From Candidatus Latescibacterota bacterium (GTDB taxonomy: Bacteria; Latescibacterota; UBA2968; GCA-2709665), in contig CAXXXF010000015.1 in assembly GCA_963667175.2 (NCBI GenBank), forward strand, positions 544,001-608,000: a stretch of DNA of 64,000 bases, written 5' to 3'. A model generated the notes under the pieces. It worked only from the letters and a program-made list of their open reading frames with translations. It searched no databases and was not told the origin of the DNA. The translations under genes were made by a program, and so were the position numbers. Every line of letters starts with the position of its first letter. Position 1 is the stretch's first letter. Positions 56,042 to 64,000 of this stretch are shown piece after piece.

Positions 56042-58425
56042 TCACTCATACCGCAACGCGTCCACCGGATTCGCGCGGGCTGCTTTGAGCGTCTCATAGC
56101 TCACGGTCAGTAGCGCAATCCACAACGCTAACAAGCCCCCAAGGACAAACGTGGAGATGCCCGGATCAATCCGGTAGGCGAATTTCCCAGCCATCTCGTC
56201 ATCGCAAAGTAGGCGATCGGCCAGGCGACGAGATTGGCAACACCGACAAGCAGGACATATTCTTTTGACAAGAGCAAGACAATACTGGAAACAGATGCCC
56301 CCACCGCCTTCCGGATACCGATCTCCTTGGTACGTTGTTGCACACTTATGGACGCCAGGCCAAACAGACCAAGAGCTGCCACGACAATCGCCAGGACTGA
56401 GAAACTGCCGAATAGCATCCCCAGCCGAGCTTCCGTCCGGTACAGCCGGTCGAATGACGCATCCAGAAACGAGTATTCAAACGGCGTATTCGGTACGACT
56501 TCGCGCCATTCAGTTCTCAGAAAATCCAGCGTATCCCCAATATCCTCCGGTCGTATCCGGATGGAAATGTAGTCTCTTGTCCAACCTCCGCCCGTCATGA
56601 TCACAAGCGGTTCAATCTCATAATGGAGAGACTTGTAATGAAAGTCATTCACAACCCCCACGACGTCTCCCTGGAGTCCCGCTTTCATTTCAGCACCTTC
56701 TCCATAGACGTCCATTCCAATCCTTTTATTCTCACAGGTAGTCCACCCCAGATTCCTCATCGCCGCTTGATTCAGTATAAAGGCTCCCTTGCGATCGCTT
56801 GAAACGTCATCCGAAAATGCCCTTCCCTCCAATACTTCAATTCCAAACGTCTCGATGAACCCGTGATCCACGTACATCACATTCATCAGCACAGCATCTT
56901 TGTAGGCGCCTTCCGTGAAGGGGAAAAACAAATTTCCGGGCATCACTCCGCCTGGTACAGTCGAAGAGGCTGTTACATTCAGTACGGCGCTGTGTGCCGA
57001 CACCTTATTTCGGTAGCGCCGCTCCGGCGCGCCGCCGCCGTTCGGCATGACAACGATATGTTCCTTTCGAAATCCAAGACGCCTGTTTCGAATAAACTCT
57101 GCCTGGTCATAAACCAAACCGGTCCCGATGACCAGAATGACCGATATTGCAAATTGGACGATAATGAGCGTCTTTCGAATGGCAGATTGTTTCGATCCGG
57201 CGTCCATCACCCCTTTGAATACCAGCACCGGTTTAAGCGCAGAGAGAAAAAACGCGGGATAGCTTCCGGAGAACAAGCCAGAAAACAGTGCAATGCCGAT
57301 CAGAGCCAACAGAGTGTTTCGGCTTTTCAGGTAATCAACGACCAGGTCGCGTTCGACAAAGGCTTCAAATGACGGAAGCAGCATCTCCACCATTACACCG
57401 GCGATGACAATGGCAATGGAAGCCAGCAACGTCGATTCGCCCAAAAACTGACCGATCAACTCACCCCGGTTCGCGCCGACCACTTTCCGCATCCCAATCT
57501 CCTTTGAGCGGTACTCCGAGCGGGCGGTCGAAAGGTTCATGAAATTGATACACGCGAGCATTAATACAATAAACGCGATAACCAGAAAGAGATAGACATA
57601 CCGGATATCCCCGTTGGGACTGATTTCAAAATCCAAGTGTGAATGAAGGTGAATATCGGTCAATGGCTGCAGAAAGAGCTTCAATTGAACACCCGCAGCT
57701 TCCATATCTGCTCCGAGGTGCCTGTGGATGAAACCCGGCAACTTCGATTCGACCTCCTCGGCAGCCTGCGTGGCCTGCAAGAGCAGATAGGTATGGAAGT
57801 CTATGCTAAGCCAGCCCTTGCTGATGTCTAGCGATGCGAGAAAGTCGAACTGTAAATGCGATCTGTTTTTTGAGTTCCTCAACACACCCGAAATCTTATG
57901 GGTGTTGCCGCCCAACGAAAGCGTCCGCCCCATCGGATCTTCGTCGCCGAAATATTTCCGAGCCACTGCTTCCGTCAGGACAATGGAATTCGGCTCCTGG
58001 AGTGCGGTTTGAGGATCACCTTTGCTCAGGGGAAAATCGAACACCTGGAAGACGTTTGAATCGACGAACAGGACGCCTCTCTCGTAGAAATGACGCTGCT
58101 GATTTGCAACAAGCGTCTTTTCATCTTTACGGTGAAACCTGACCGCGTCTTCTACTGACGGGTATTCTTGAACGAGAGTTGAACCCATTGGGAATGATGT
58201 AACGGCGAACCGACCGGGCGCACCTTCCGAATGTATCTCTGTGGCGAGCCGGAAAATCCGATCCGCATTCCTGTGGTGCCGGTCATAGCTCAATTCATCT
58301 TGAACGTAAAGGAGTATGAGCAAGCAGCAGGCCATGCCGATTGCAAGACCGAGGATGTTTATCGCCGAAAACGTCTTGTTCCTCATCAGGTTGCGAATGG
58401 CGACTTTCAGGTAGTTTGCGACCAC
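56042..58425 (-). pseudogene. MacB/FtsX-like ABC permease, copy 6, with a 1-nt frameshift near the 3' end
   Basis: Reads ...RWLGN then shifts; the expected FAYRID...ANPVDALRYE* continues in another frame to 56042. Could be a sequencing error. Confidence 0.8.
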
Positions 58426-58439
58426 GTAGGGTCACCTCC

Positions 58440-59950
58440 AGCGTTTCTTTGACGCGGCTTCGCTCAGAACGAATGGGCGCCCGCCCAAACTGTCATGCTA
58501 AGAAATCCGTTGTGAGGGTGGGGCCTGCCTCGACGTCGCTCACAAAAACAGGCCGGCCGATCTCCAAACGTGTCATCCTGAGGAGGCCGCCCTGTCTGCC
58601 AGAGATTCATCGGCAGGCAGGCCGACGAAGGATCTACTGCAGCATCGCTCGATACCCGACCGTCTTTTTTCATTCGCCGCGGGCTGACAGGCGGCACGTT
58701 TGCGCCTACATGGCCAGGCGGCGCAAGCGCGTGTGATGATGCAACCGCCCAGACTGTCATGTTTAGAATCCGTAGTGAAGGCGGGGCGGACATTCCTGTC
58801 TGCCCACGGCAATGGCATTCTGTCGGCATGGACGCAGATTGACGAGGCCGCCAGGCCAACAATGCCTCCGCGCATATGGGCCGGTGAAGGCTTGCGCTGC
58901 ATGTCAACCCGAATAGACGGGAGATTCTTCGCTCCGCTCAGAATGACATGTCTTGCAATAACGCTTGCCGAGACGTCTCCGTCACACCCTCGCCCATCAT
59001 GTCATCCTGAGGAAGCCGTCCTGCCTGCTGGCGGTTCACCGGCAGGCTGGCTGACGAAGGATCTACTGCGGCATCGCTTGATACCCGAGCGTCTTCTGTC
59101 ATTCGCCGTGACGTGGAAGGCGGCACGTCTGCGCCTACACGGCCAGGCGGAGCAAACGCGTGTGATAATGCACCCGCCCAGACTGTCATGTTTAGAATTC
59201 CGATGTGAGGGTGGGGCAGACATTCCTGTCTGCCCAAGTCAATGTCATTCTGTCGGCATGGACGTAGACTGAGGAAACCGCCAATGAAACGAAGCGTCCG
59301 CGCATATGGGCCGGTGAAGGCTTGCGCTGCATGTCAACCCGAATAGACGGGAGATTCTTCGCTGCGCTCAGAATGACATGTCTTGCAATGGATATGAGCG
59401 AAATGTTTCGGTCATACGTTTGCCAGGTCCATCACCCGCTCGGCCTGTGCCCCTCCCTGAGCCTGCGGTTCCTGAGCCGTTCCCTGAGCCTGTCGAAGGG
59501 CCGGCGAAGGGATTGCGAACGGTTTATGGGCTGCCTGAATGCGGGCATTTCGAAAAGCTCAATGACCACTTTTTGATAGGCCACTTCGACAAGCTCAGCG
59601 CTGGCAGAACGGGCAATGACCACGTTTCGACAGGGGCTTTCGGCTCCGCTCAGAATGACTGTTTGACTGACCTCCGACTGCGAGACGTTTCCGTCATACG
59701 TTCGCCCAAGCATGTCATCCTGAGGAAGCCGCCTTGCCTGCCAGCGGTTCATCGGCAGGCTGGCTGACGAAGGATCTACTGCGGCATCGCTTGATACCCG
59801 AGCGTCTTCTGTCATTCGCCGTGACGTGGAAGGCGGCACGTCTGCGCCTGCACGGCCAGGCGGAGCAAACGCGTGTGATAATGCACCCGCCCAAACTATC
59901 ATGCTTAGAAATCCGGTGCGAGGGTGGGGCGGACATTCCTGTCTGCCCGC
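58440..59950. repeat. Tandem array of composite ~429-bp units
   Basis: GTCATCCTGAGG anchors at 58572, 59001 and 59714; the units at 59001 and 59714 are nearly identical over about 230 bp. Confidence 0.88.
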
Positions 59951-61725
59951 TCTTACTCATACCGTAGCGCGTCGACAGGATTCGTGCACGCAGTTCTCCA
60001 AGCGCGATGACTCACAGTGGTCAACGCAATAAAAAACGCCAGAAAACCACCCATGACAAAAGGCCATACATCCAGATCAATGCGATAGGCAAAATTCCGT
60101 AACCACGCGTTCATTGCATAATATGCAACTGGCCATGCAATGAGATTTGCAAGTCCGACAAGCAGGACGAATTCTCTGGACATTAGCAGAACGACTGTGG
60201 AAACAGACGCGCCGAGGACCTTTCTGATGCCGATCTCCTTGACGCGCCGTTGCGCGCTGAATGAAGCCAGGCCAAACAGCCCAAGACTTGCGACAAGTAT
60301 GGCGAGGAGTGAGAACAGACCAAACAGCCTGCCAATCTGTTGTTCTTCACGATGCAGTTTCTCGTAATCATCGTCCAGGAAGAAATAATCGAACGGTGTA
60401 TTCGGCGCAATATCACCCCACTGCGCCTTTAGAAAACTGAGTGTACCAGCGATATCATCCGATCGAATCCTGATAACGAAATACTCAAACCACGTTTCCT
60501 GCGTCGTGATAATCAGAGGTTCGATTTCATGATGCAAAGACTGATAGTGAAAATCCTTCACAACGCCGACAACCTTTCCTCTGTATTCTACCTTTATTTC
60601 GTTGCCCTGTGGCCATATTTTCTCCAAATCCTTACCTACACACGAACTCCAACCGAATTTTCGCATGGCAGCTTCATTGAGGATAAGTTCGCCACGGTCA
60701 TCACGCGGATTTTTTTCCACAAAGCCTCTGCCTTCTACGAGTTCAAGCCCAAGTGTGGAGACGAATTCGTTGTCAACCACCAATTTGTTCATCCCAAAGC
60801 CATCCTCAGATCCGCCATCACGAGGAGATCGAAAAAGACCGGCGGGAAATGGTCGACCAGGCAGACTTGAAGTCGTCGAAGTGCTCAATACATCTGCATA
60901 CTCCGACAATCTCGATTTATATCGCTTTGACGCCTCAATGCCGGGATACGGCAATACTACGACCTGTTCCTTATTGAAACCCAGTTCCTTGTTTCTGATG
61001 TAATCCGACTGATCGTAAACAACAATCGTTCCGACAATTAGAATTACCGAAATGGCAAATTGAAACACGACAAGAGTTTTACGTGAACTGGATTTCTGCA
61101 ACCCAATCTTCACTGTGCTCTTGAAGACCTCTGCTGGCCGAAGAGCTGAGAGAATCAAGGCAGGATAAATCCCGGAGAGTAAGCCTGAAAACATCGCCAT
61201 CCCTATCAGGACAGACAGCACATCCAAACCTCCCGCGTATTCCAATTCCAACTCGCGGGAGATAAGGGCGTTAAACAAAGGAAGCGAGACCTCAACAATT
61301 ACAACAGCCAAGAATGACGAAAACAACGCCAACAAGATCGATTCGCCCATAAACTGGCGGAAAAGCTGTGAGCCGTCGGCGCCTACCACTCTTCGCATAC
61401 TCACTTCTTTTGACCGCGCCGTTGACCGTGCCGTTGACAGATTCGTAAAATTGATGCAAGCCAATACCAACACAATGAAGGCAATGATCAGGAAGAGATA
61501 AACATGGCGAATATCGCCGTTGGGACTCATTTCCCACTCCAAACTGGAATTCAAATGAATGTCAGCCAGGGGTTGCAGGAAGTACTTGATGTGTAAACCT
61601 GCAGCTTTGGCTCGTTTCCCTATGGGGAATGTACCTATCTTAGTTGAAATAGAAGAGGCTCCGATGTAAATTGGATACAGTAGTCCCGAGTAGAATACTG
61701 TATCCTCATACGAAAGGAGCCTGTA

Positions 61726-63042
61726 ATGAGCAAGGTATCATCGAAGTCTCGTGAAGTCAAGTTGAACACGGAAGGTGTTGTGAGTTCCAGGGCGGTCTCC
61801 GCAGGTATGCTGGAGGATGTTGACGTCCGTGTGGCCTTGATCCAGTCGCTGATCCCTCTGGGTCTGGCCGCCGTGGAAGAAATCTTGCAGAATGAGGTCG
61901 CCGCGTTGACGGGCAAGAGATACAGTCGTAAAGCAGACAAGGCCCCGAATCGCCGGTGGGGCGTGCAACGTGGATCGGTGTATCTATCGGACCAGAAAGT
62001 GCCCGTGGCGGTACCGAGGGTGCGCGACGTGGAAGCCAATGAGGAGGTGCCTCTACAGGCGTATCGCCGCTTGCAGCGCCCCAGAGACATGGACGAAGGG
62101 TTGCTGCTTCGCGTTCTGGGCGGCCTTGCCACGCGTTCTTACGCCAGTTGCGCAGAGGCGGTACCCGAGGCGTTTGGCTTGTCTTCGTCGACGGTCTCGA
62201 AGCGGTTCATAAAGACATCAGCGGCCAAGCTGAGGCAGTTTCAAGAACGGTCGCTTGCCGGCTATGACCTGGTGGGGCTGTTTATGGATGGCAAGACCTT
62301 TGCCGATCAGCAAATGATCATCGCCCTTGGCGTGACAATCGACGGGGACAAGGTCCCGCTGGGGTTCGTGCAGGCCGCCAGTGAAAATGAGCGCGTGTGC
62401 CGGCAGTTTGTCAATTCGCTCATCGATCGCGGACTGCAGTATCACCAGGGGCTGCTGTGCCTCATCGACGGCTCGAAGGGGTTGCGGACCGCGCTGACCA
62501 AGGCCCTATCCGGATACGTCGCCATTCAACGCTGCCAGCCTGCCTGCCGAGCATCCGGCGCAGGCAGGTGGCACAAACGGGAAAACGTGATCGCCTATCT
62601 GCCCAAATCACAGCAGGATGAGGTCAGAAAGGCCCTCCACGATGCGTACGACAAGGAGACCTACAACGAAGCCAAAGCCGCGCTACAGGCCCTCAAACCC
62701 TCCCTGGCGCTGAGGAACGCATCGGCACTGAACAGCCTCGAGGAAGGGCTCGAAGAAACCCTCACCCTCCATCGGCTGGGGCTCATGCCACAGCTCAAAC
62801 AATCGTTCCGCACCACCAACTGTATCGAATCCCTCAACGCCATGGTCGCTCAGCGCACACGAAATGTAAAACGATGGAACAACTCCGATCAGCGATATCG
62901 GTGGTTGGCAGCCGCGCTGTTAGACATCGAGCCACGACTGCGGAGAATCAAAGGATACCGCTTTCTTCCTATACTCAGACTTGCCCTACAAAAACACCTC
63001 AACCTCGATCACGACGCGCAAGAGGCTTTCGCCGCCGACTAA
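61726..63042 (+). CDS. IS256/Mutator-family DDE transposase with a 10-aa in-frame insertion
   Basis: Motifs VPRVRD, FMDG, LIDGSKGL, QRCQ[PACRASGAGR]WHKREN, RTTNCIESLN. Confidence 0.92.
   Translation: MSKVSSKSREVKLNTEGVVSSRAVSAGMLEDVDVRVALIQSLIPLGLAAVEEILQNEVAALTGKRYSRKADKAPNRRWGVQRGSVYLSDQKVPVAVPRVRDVEANEEVPLQAYRRLQRPRDMDEGLLLRVLGGLATRSYASCAEAVPEAFGLSSSTVSKRFIKTSAAKLRQFQERSLAGYDLVGLFMDGKTFADQQMIIALGVTIDGDKVPLGFVQAASENERVCRQFVNSLIDRGLQYHQGLLCLIDGSKGLRTALTKALSGYVAIQRCQPACRASGAGRWHKRENVIAYLPKSQQDEVRKALHDAYDKETYNEAKAALQALKPSLALRNASALNSLEEGLEETLTLHRLGLMPQLKQSFRTTNCIESLNAMVAQRTRNVKRWNNSDQRYRWLAAALLDIEPRLRRIKGYRFLPILRLALQKHLNLDHDAQEAFAAD
62539..62568. mobile_element. 30-bp palindromic mini-insertion inside the transposase gene
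   Basis: CCTGCCTGCCGAGCATCCGGCGCAGGCAGG; removing it restores QRCQWHK. Confidence 0.85.
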
Positions 63043-63986
63043 ACGCCTCTCCCGTTTCAACTAAAAATAGTACTTGCCCTTCCCTATGTGTCTCTCGGTG
63101 AAATCAGGTAACTTCGTTTCTAACTCGTCAGCTGCACGGGCGTCTTGCAAGAGCAGATAGGTATAATAATCGTGGGCAATCCATGCCTTACTCTTAATGG
63201 GCGATGCCAGAAAATCGAACGTCATATGGGTGTTGTGGGTGTGATCCTCCAAAATACCGGTTATCTTATACGCTTCACCCTCCATGGTAAGCGTCTGCCC
63301 TATCGGATCCCGGTCGCCGAAATATTTCCACGCCATCTCTTGTGTGAGAACAATGGAATAAGGCTCCAGCAGTGCAGTTTGAGGTTCTCCTTTGCCCAGT
63401 GGAAAATCAAAGACGTGGAAAACATTCGCGTCGGTAAACAAGACATTACTTTCGTAGAAATGATCCTGCTGGTTTCGAACAAGCGTCTTTTCATCGTCTT
63501 TCGAAAAACGGACTGCATCTATCACCTCCGCATAGTCTTCGACAAGTGCAGGTCCCGTTGAAAATGGCGTCATGGCAATATGACGCATGACCCCTGCGAC
63601 TTTTGCGGTAGTAGCAAGCCGATAAATGCGGTGTGCGTTTTCATGGTGTCTGTCATAGCTCAGTTCATCCTGAACGTAGAGGAGAATGAGCATGCAGCAG
63701 GCCATGCCGATTGCAAGGCCAAGAATATTGATGGCCGAAAACGTCTTGTTCCTCATCAGGTTGCGAATGGCGACTTTCAGATAGTTCGCGACCACGTAGG
63801 GTCACCTCCTGTGTCTTCTCTGGCGCGGCTTCGCTCGGAATGAATGGGCCTTCGCCCAAACCGGCATGTTGAGAAATCCAATGCGAGGGTGGGGCCTGCC
63901 TGCGCGAAGCGGAGCGCCTGCCTGCCGCGGCAAGCGAAGCGGCGCAGGCAGGCGGCAGGCAGGCAGACATTCCTGTCTGCCCTTTA

Positions 63987-64000
63987 TCACTCATACCGCA
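63987..64000 (-). CDS. 3' end of an eighth MacB/FtsX-like permease (continues beyond the window)
   Basis: Reverse complement encodes ...RYE-stop in the same context (CTGTCTGCCCTTTATCACTCATACCGCA) as copy 5. Confidence 0.65.

Follow-up and report, generated by a model that had tools for sequence, protein, structure and literature searches.

A 64,000-nucleotide stretch from the genome of a Candidatus Latescibacterota bacterium (GenBank assembly GCA_963667175.2, contig CAXXXF010000015.1, forward-strand positions 544,001 to 608,000; the whole stretch is called the window below) contains an insertion sequence (IS) of the IS256 family that lies inside a permease gene and whose own transposase gene carries, within its catalytic motif, a palindrome of 30 bp. 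Judging by its profile matches, the 438-amino acid protein encoded by the open reading frame (ORF) at 61726-63042, on the plus strand, is an IS256/Mutator-family transposase: it matches Pfam PF00872 (E = 1e-36, 127.1 bits versus a cut-off of 21) and NCBIfam NF033543 (208.9 bits versus a cut-off of 150). Alignment of the genome's IS copies, together with a repeat search, places the whole IS at 61625-63079 on the same strand; it measures 1455 bp in the window and 1425 bp in its sister copies, and it is bordered by terminal inverted repeats of 35 nt (61625-61659 on the left, pairing with 63045-63079 on the right) that are 74% complementary. A perfect 9-bp direct repeat, TTCCCTATG, adjoins both ends (61616-61624 and 63080-63088) and forms the target-site duplication, while 8-bp duplications, read by eye, accompany six of the seven other IS copies.

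The gene that the IS interrupts encodes a permease of the ADOP/MacB type. On the minus strand, its N-terminal part, with a MacB_PCD domain, lies at 63089-63795 (the listed ORF, 63061-63795, extends into the IS end), and its C-terminal part, with FtsX domains and covering positions 270-803 of the ADOP profile, at 59953-61624 (listed ORF 59953-61554). Removal in silico of the IS and of one copy of the duplication leaves a single open frame of 794 amino acids. The corresponding IS-free allele is present in a public sample: in the sponge-metagenome run X1 (Logan contigs), a contig of 976 bp joins 61615 to 63080, skipping 1464 bp that correspond to the IS plus one copy of the duplication, with no other difference over 309 and 321 bp of permease flank. 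Run X1 may be the very sample behind the window assembly and is thus not an independent confirmation of anything beyond the existence of that allele.

Eight full-length copies of the IS are found in this genome of 5.52 Mb and 18 contigs. Five sister copies show no differences among themselves, and their 428-amino acid transposase is encoded on five contigs; the window copy differs from them by one substitution and the 30 bp. The two others (C15:115393-116888 and C16:146898-148322) are 70-78 differences away from the rest and from each other. Since five sisters are only one substitution away and an IS-free permease allele occurs in run X1, the jump into the permease gene is, on sequence grounds, recent. 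As a separate observation, the copy at C3:371611-373035 (L004) lacks a direct repeat next to its ends; the 8 nt just beyond its right end recur 8 bp before its left end, within a 22-bp palindrome, which suggests that this copy entered a hairpin-forming site and that a small rearrangement followed.

The 30-bp palindrome in the transposase gene

Within the transposase ORF, the palindrome occupies 62539-62568 (plus strand) and consists of perfect 9-nt inverted arms (62539-62547 and 62560-62568, located by repeat search) around an imperfectly paired centre of 12 nt. It adds ten codons in phase 0 (PACRASGAGR) between Q271 and W282, turning QRCQWHKREN into QRCQ-PACRASGAGR-WHKREN; the window's ORF list reads ...AIQRCQPACRASGAGRWHKREN... 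across the insertion, and the stretch around the CxxH motif is given as ...YVAIQRCQPACRASGAGRWHKRENV... in the same 438-residue frame. The ORF remains open because the insert has a length that is a multiple of three and contains no stop in the frame used. The site that received it is itself a small palindrome, TGCCA-G-TGGCA, which accounts for the stronger predicted fold of the 30-mer with 7-nt flanks (-27.7 kcal/mol) than alone (-18.2 kcal/mol; RNA parameters).

What is interrupted is the C/DxxH motif (62533-62574, plus strand), whose residues now read C270 (62533-35), Q271 (62536-38), the ten extra codons, W282 (62569-71) and H283 (62572-74). The only solved relative, the ISCth4 transposase TnpA (6xg8; E = 8e-5), reads QRCI----------VHQIRN in a HMMER alignment of chain 6xg8_A against QRCQ[ten residues]WHKREN, i.e., with a ten-residue gap between Cys and His. 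C270 and H283 align with C262 and H265 of ISCth4 TnpA in the numbering of PMC7780238, an offset of three residues being allowed between this and the chain numbering, and D248 and E368 align with D241 and E348. D188, inferred as the first residue of the DDE triad from an aligned FMDG/FIDA stretch, is invariant, together with D248 and E368, in an alignment of 18 protein sequences. C270 lies 22 amino acids after D248, and the spacing from Cys to His is 12 in the window copy versus 2 normally. As an element, the IS belongs to the IS256 family and is ordinary, only one of its copies being disrupted: the C/DxxH feature is present in the five sisters and broken in the window copy.

An earlier note on this DNA, made from the letters alone, had described much of this arrangement; the follow-up confirms its observation and supports its interpretation in part. 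The intact 9-bp duplication it reported is a perfect direct repeat at both IS ends; the splitting of the permease is borne out by the FtsX, MacB_PCD and ADOP pieces and the 794-residue frame, and the recency of the jump by sister identity and the IS-free allele. Arm coordinates and codon arithmetic uphold its statement that the palindrome accounts exactly for the ten extra residues, the frame is as open as it said, and the nesting does have three layers, the palindrome lying in the IS and the IS in the permease gene. Its placing of CxxH as a conserved IS256/Mutator motif between the second D and the E is likewise supported by the ISCth4 alignment.

Comparison indicates that the 30 bp are a derived insertion and not a natural loop, because they are missing from six of the genome's eight full-length copies, from all 23 site-spanning IS places listed in relatives, and from all 16 outside homologues examined. 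In the six genomic copies, the sequence runs uninterrupted across the gap. The places in relatives (genomes G002, G013, G014, G025, G029, and G035) fall short of the query span by 29-30 bp, and the six of them that were aligned base by base are all empty. In the 18-row alignment, the outside homologues (63-95% identity) show an ungapped QRCQWHKREN, and R269, C270, Q271, W282, H283, K284, R285, and N287 are invariant. The earlier note had proposed sister copies without 62539-62568 as a check of a later insertion, and a ten-residue loop in unrelated homologues as what would overturn it; the former exist and none of the latter appeared among the 16 outside homologues aligned.

The probability that the ten residues are simply a variable loop natural to this transposase clade, with no insertion event behind them, is negligible. 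Only the window protein and one other, P0001, carry them, homologues down to 63% identity do not, ISCth4 has no residues at this position, and the DNA concerned belongs exactly to a palindrome family with dispersed members; the empty genomic copies and the empty places in relatives argue in the same direction. An assembly or sequencing artefact is highly improbable as well. It would fit the fact that the IS occurs in eight copies, such that assembly of any single one depends on spanning reads, and the Logan contigs of runs X1 and X2 over the IS show only the form without the 30 bp. These contigs speak against the insertion but collapse repeats and carry little weight; they also contain 5-9 other differences and are expected to reflect the commoner sister form. 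Moreover, the same 30 bp stand at the same site in a second, distinct copy with flanks and a target duplication of its own, the ten residues recur in P0001 from a different assembly, and the insert belongs exactly to a family present at many loci and in other genomes.

This recurrence is new relative to the earlier note. The diverged copy at C15:115393-116888 (L007) has an identical 30-mer (30/30) at the same site, although 70 of about 1425 other positions differ (about 5%), and it is flanked by its own sequence and its own 8-bp duplication. It is a pseudogene, with 1-bp indels and two frameshifting hairpins of 20 and 19 bp. An intact protein of 438 amino acids, P0001, has the same ten residues; the contig that encodes it is 5443 bp long and comes from another assembly. 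P0001 differs from the window protein by 19 mismatches and from the C16 copy by 12, and among the 120 best protein database matches it is the only other one with 438 residues. Presence and absence of the 30 bp are thus mixed within all three IS lineages.

The palindrome family and its hosts

The 30-mer belongs to a family whose units have the form CCTGCCTGC-(0-30 nt)-GCAGGCAGG, with fixed outer arms and a variable centre. The genome contains 173 units of 19-47 bp, mostly 19-36 bp, while a reversed-pattern control gave none; the sizes include 33 bp (75 units), 19 bp (48), 20 bp (16), and 36 bp (14), the 30-bp size being represented by three units and the remainder being of other lengths. Arm 9-mers number 572 genome-wide, and an 11-mer of the arm motif has 14 matches in the window versus 0.03 expected. 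Unit lengths are skewed to multiples of three (94 of 173, chiefly 33 and 36 bp).

For 126 of the 173 units, at least one seamless empty paralogous site exists in the same genome, an empty site being defined as a match elsewhere of the joined 50-bp flanks with at least 85% identity and at most two gaps. Most units thus have other dispersed repeats as their hosts, and these repeats occur both with and without the unit. Among 74 distinct flank pairs, the preceding base is G in 68 and the following base is C in 61, i.e., the target is mostly G^C; the outer arms mark the unit boundaries exactly in every case, and no target duplication is seen at any of these 74 junction types. The C15:115393-116888 copy of the IS is particularly informative, since it holds three naked units (30, 20, and 19 bp), and its sisters show the corresponding sites empty, which establishes the hairpin itself as the mobile unit. 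Units also nest: a 54-bp insert in a 1.7-kb element (see below) is a 33-mer with a 21-bp hairpin at its centre, and the 47-mers hold a second set of arms. From these junctions, the palindromes behave as mobile DNA that inserts seamlessly and without target duplication.

Across 41 related genomes, hairpin counts range from 0 to 173 per genome, the reversed-pattern control being 0 everywhere. A hairpin match was obtained in 15 of 21 genomes of the bacterium's own family and in 2 of 19 of the sister family. The exact 30-mer occurs at nine other places with unrelated flanks (eight distinct contexts), in this genome and in G009, G011, G015, G016, and G019, and a collection of species representatives has it in seven stretches of four records, all from Candidatus Latescibacterota. 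To judge from these sequence searches, the family is confined to some relatives within that phylum; a limited literature search found no publication on such repeats in Latescibacterota.

Several observations concern how the units are arranged. Within one composite repeat, a 19-mer is repeatedly accompanied by a 33-mer at a start-to-start distance of 73-87 bp, as a REPIN-like doublet (REPINs being doublets of repetitive extragenic palindromic sequences, or REPs), at C2:175536-175641, C3:491907-492012, C3:521681-521786, and C4:259101-259206. In the window, palindrome clusters within larger repeats lie directly upstream (63860-63990) and downstream (58590-59960) of the split permease, and long spurious ORFs with peptides of the PACLPAC/RQAGRQA type extend through them. 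An Rfam scan of 58000-64000 (E <= 1) gave a single match, to the ES003 small RNA at 58594-58621 (25.2 bits versus a threshold of 37, E = 0.097), which was dismissed as chance.

The earlier note had also taken the insertion to mean that the mini-element can target ordinary coding DNA. Intragenic hits are indeed real, but that statement goes too far: all confirmed hosts are genes of mobile elements. Thirty of the 173 units lie in open frames of at least 400 amino acids, and in 23 of these the hairpin is no more than 100 codons from the beginning of the stop-to-stop frame, which probably places it upstream of where translation really starts. Five candidate frames were scanned, three of which gave no Pfam match and two only domains far downstream of the hairpin; neither the frame screen nor these scans found a hairpin in a Pfam-supported housekeeping gene. 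A screen of GC content by codon position left only the 1.7-kb element and C16:489591. Intragenic insertion is thus confirmed in the IS256 copies and in this multicopy element, whose ORF has 548-552 codons. Both host genes belong to mobile elements and are under weak selection against insertions.

The 1.7-kb element is present in about 10 copies of 95-96% identity in this genome (G000), in 11 in G007, and in one in G009. One copy, C4:188348-190096 (L051/L092), contains the 30-mer in the opposite orientation as well as the 54-bp composite, both in frame. The 548-amino acid product of the element matches no Pfam or NCBIfam family, and only clusters labelled "hypothetical protein" in the Atlas. 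It may represent an undescribed transposase family; a further sister copy lies in L098, with its ORF at 1344-2990. A possible additional intragenic case is the 33-bp unit at C16:489591-489623, which has a coding-like GC profile by codon position on both sides in a minus-strand frame (106 and 182 codons).

Origin of the insertion and fate of the enzyme

Taken as a whole, the locus shows a lineage-specific palindrome inserted, seamlessly and with no duplication, between Q271 and W282 in the C/DxxH motif of an IS256-family copy that itself recently entered the ADOP-type gene. In the reading that probably fits best, the widened Cys/His spacing would abolish or impair catalysis while leaving the ORF open, the disrupted copy then moving only via transposase supplied in trans by its five intact, identical sisters. 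The palindrome may have reached this site by a homing-like transfer from a copy that already carried it, and the palindromes in general might be moved by a Y1/HUH transposase acting on single-strand hairpins.

How the 30-mer came to occupy one site in several IS lineages admits more than one answer. A homology-assisted, homing-like transfer from a hairpin-bearing IS copy, triggered by a break at the empty site, is a serious but tentative candidate on the sequence evidence, and it is favoured because a conversion tract, independent hits, and an ancient origin each fit poorly. Two positions near the hairpin are instructive. The single substitution that separates the window copy from its sisters is a C, 47 bp downstream, which is the ancestral state according to outgroup copies. 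The base 4 bp upstream of the hairpin is C in the window clade and T in the others, C being derived by the same outgroup comparison, and each hairpin-bearing copy retains its own marker base at this distance. An ordinary long conversion tract is therefore disfavoured, since this marker would have been carried along. Somewhat unlikely, and about equally so, are retention of an ancestral 30-mer with seamless loss in the sisters and repeated independent insertion at the same site: an ancient common origin sits badly with 30/30 identity beside 5% divergence, while independent hits would call for a hot spot, although no common target links the places where the 30-mer lies elsewhere. A second case points in the same direction as the homing-like transfer, as copies of the 1.7-kb element at non-orthologous loci in G000 and G009 share a 33-mer at one site that is empty in ten other G000 copies. 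A more speculative possibility, decidedly improbable, makes the window copy a parked, hairpin-bearing master, from which seamless loss of the hairpin would have released the active form and its five identical sisters, the 30-mer being a reversible off-switch; the companion idea, no more probable, would have the 19-36-bp palindromes enter and leave seamlessly as self-contained units and home between copies of mobile elements. The earlier note had allowed either a later insertion or mobilisation of the IS in trans; both may still hold, but the presence of the same 30-mer in the C15 copy and P0001 makes that dichotomy too narrow.

Published work bears on the consequence for the enzyme. The C/DxxH motif is described as "important for catalysis" and as opening an insertion domain of four helices (residues 261-325), by which the RNase-H fold is interrupted, and in Hermes its His "directly contacts the scissile phosphate", according to the structural account in PMC7780238; the survey in PMC5499845 places it 15-45 amino acids after the second Asp and describes it as conserved across superfamilies. 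Catalysis should suffer because Cys and His are separated just where the core is hinged to the insertion domain, and the increase in spacing from 2 to 12 is likely to kill or cripple it, trans-mobilisation then being needed. An AlphaFold2 model of the 438-residue protein built on the 18-row alignment was too poor to be used (mean pLDDT 45.2, pTM 0.30). Several points nonetheless weigh against a loss of function. The ten residues might loop out between strand and helix and be tolerated, and their occurrence at different places in three IS lineages (the window copy, C15:115393-116888, and P0001), with the ORF intact in both the window and P0001, would also fit an insertion-bearing lineage that is still mobile. 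The 1.7-kb element that contains in-frame hairpins of 30 and 54 bp keeps an open frame of 583 amino acids, with a coding-like GC profile by codon position on both sides of the 30-mer, and one hairpin of this element is common to a single site in copies at non-orthologous loci of two species. That the extra loop is tolerated and the insertion-bearing IS propagates itself is nevertheless unlikely. The C-x-x-H spacing is invariant in every aligned homologue and, in the accounts of PMC5499845 and PMC7780238, conserved across superfamilies, the His being an active-site residue in Hermes (PMC7780238). In addition, the sole burst of identical copies in this genome, five without any difference, is of the insertion-free form, and an open ORF is trivial for a GC-rich unit of 30 bp.

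As for what moves the palindromes, a single-strand, hairpin-recognising transposase of the Y1/HUH class (RAYT-like, after the REP-associated tyrosine transposases), working by seamless peel-and-paste, is conceivable but somewhat doubtful. Single-strand Y1/HUH transposition, as in IS200/IS605 and RAYTs, is recognised by hairpins that are gained and lost seamlessly and leave no duplication. The genome contains six Y1 loci, of which C7:62896-63492 has hairpin-bearing repeats on both sides, 243 and 433 bp away, and C8:17635-18159 has one 298 bp upstream; random 600-bp intervals have hairpins on both sides in 0.09% and on one side in 6.3% of cases. Two Y1 genes of G016 have a hairpin-bearing flank in common. 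The connection with Y1/RAYT-like genes is weak, and a number of results count against it. The Y1 proteins score 44 and 54.3 bits with REP_Tyr_transpos, versus an NCBIfam RAYT cut-off of 80, and four of the six Y1 loci of G000 have no hairpin within 500 bp. G009 has 129 hairpins yet no match with the G000 Y1 protein, its two Pfam Y1 matches belonging to another subfamily, whereas G004, G008, and G017 match that protein and have no hairpins; over the 41 genomes, presence of the protein and hairpin counts do not correlate. Finally, the arms are symmetric, and no conserved tetranucleotide of the classical REP kind was seen. On the side of the Y1 genes themselves, C7:59525-60124 and C7:62893-63492 (L057 and L056) are 92%-identical, IS200/RAYT-like genes of 199 codons lying 3 kb apart, only the second of which is flanked by hairpin-bearing repeats, both in the same orientation, and a third, partial copy lies at C6:490202-490675.

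It could be argued that no dedicated enzyme exists and that homologous recombination or template switching between repeats with shared flanks is all that spreads the palindromes. The residence of 126 of the 173 hairpins in sequences with paralogues, the position of the 30-mer at the same site in homologous IS copies, and the 33-mer shared by copies of the second element in two species would all agree with this, but such a mode of spread is improbable as a full account. Template switching or recombination alone is insufficient because of the 74 different junction types, with boundaries always exactly at the outer arms; the exact 30-mer also stands between unrelated flanks at its nine other places, and first arrival at a new type of site cannot derive from flank homology.

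The eight IS copies provide an unusually clean before-and-after record, in which boundaries are exact, no target is duplicated, and the empty sites of three insertions (30, 20, and 19 bp) are known. Such evidence is usually missing for REP-like elements, and here it comes from an uncultured candidate phylum. One mobile element thereby disables, or at least rewrites, the catalytic motif of another while its ORF stays open, a warning that "intact" transposase ORFs should not be counted as active. Should both entry and exit of the palindromes prove seamless, they could influence how active ISs are and supply proteins with short peptide insertions; if they are self-contained units, these 19-36-bp palindromes would be among the smallest mobile DNA known in bacteria.

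Comparison with known systems

At the level of the IS, the closest comparison is with ISCth4 TnpA (6xg8), with which the window element shares the family profiles, the DDE residues, a C/DxxH motif at the start of the helical insertion domain, inverted repeats, and a duplication of 8-9 bp; it departs from it in the ten residues that interrupt this motif, an interruption seen in none of the 16 aligned outside homologues. The palindromes differ from MITEs, which are miniature transposable elements that have terminal inverted repeats and owe their target-site duplication to a DDE transposase, in that target-site duplications are absent and empty sites are seamless. Rickettsia palindromic elements are about 100-150 bp long and lie in frame in protein-coding genes, to which they add a peptide segment. 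The unit in the window is similarly a palindrome that adds a peptide in frame to a coding gene, but the units described here are several times smaller (19-47 bp, or 54 bp when nested), and their confirmed hosts are transposase-type genes instead of housekeeping genes. Nesting of an IS and a small palindrome is also known from IS1397, ISKpn1, and similar REP-inserting ISs (works cited in PMC3116915; see also PMC1525189); here the order is reversed, the palindrome lying inside the IS and inside its ORF.

REPs and REPINs, on which the literature includes PMC3116915, PMC2817692, and PMC3479197, are short (about 20-40 bp), GC-rich, imperfect palindromes with more than 100 copies per genome, lineage-specific and often in composite repeats, all of which applies to the present family. 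As in REP/RAYT systems, the genome holds Y1-family genes, one of its six loci being flanked on both sides by hairpin-bearing repeats and one more on one side, although the proteins remain below the RAYT cut-off and the co-occurrence of REPs and RAYTs across genomes is not reproduced. The outer arms are perfectly symmetric here, with no conserved 5' tetranucleotide seen, and, unlike REPs, single units of 19-36 bp show a clean filled/empty polymorphism and occur in ORFs of mobile elements.

The small dispersed repeats (SDRs) of cyanobacteria leave no target duplication and occur nested, both within each other and within repeats of other kinds. Those of heterocyst-forming cyanobacteria were reportedly treated by Elhai et al. 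in 2008 (Genome Res 18:1484). Papers that cite this work describe them as precisely inserted into HIP1, and in PMC2884548 they appear as "some 20 bp long ... might be mobile". The units of Candidatus Latescibacterota belong to another phylum, have another sequence, and use a G^C target instead of HIP1. In behaviour alone, the two are close: a very small unit, precise insertion without target duplication, filled and empty sites (126 of 173), nesting of units in one another (the 54-bp composite and the 47-mers), and hosts that are mostly other repeats. The palindromes behave in a manner akin to REPs and, even more so, to the cyanobacterial SDRs.

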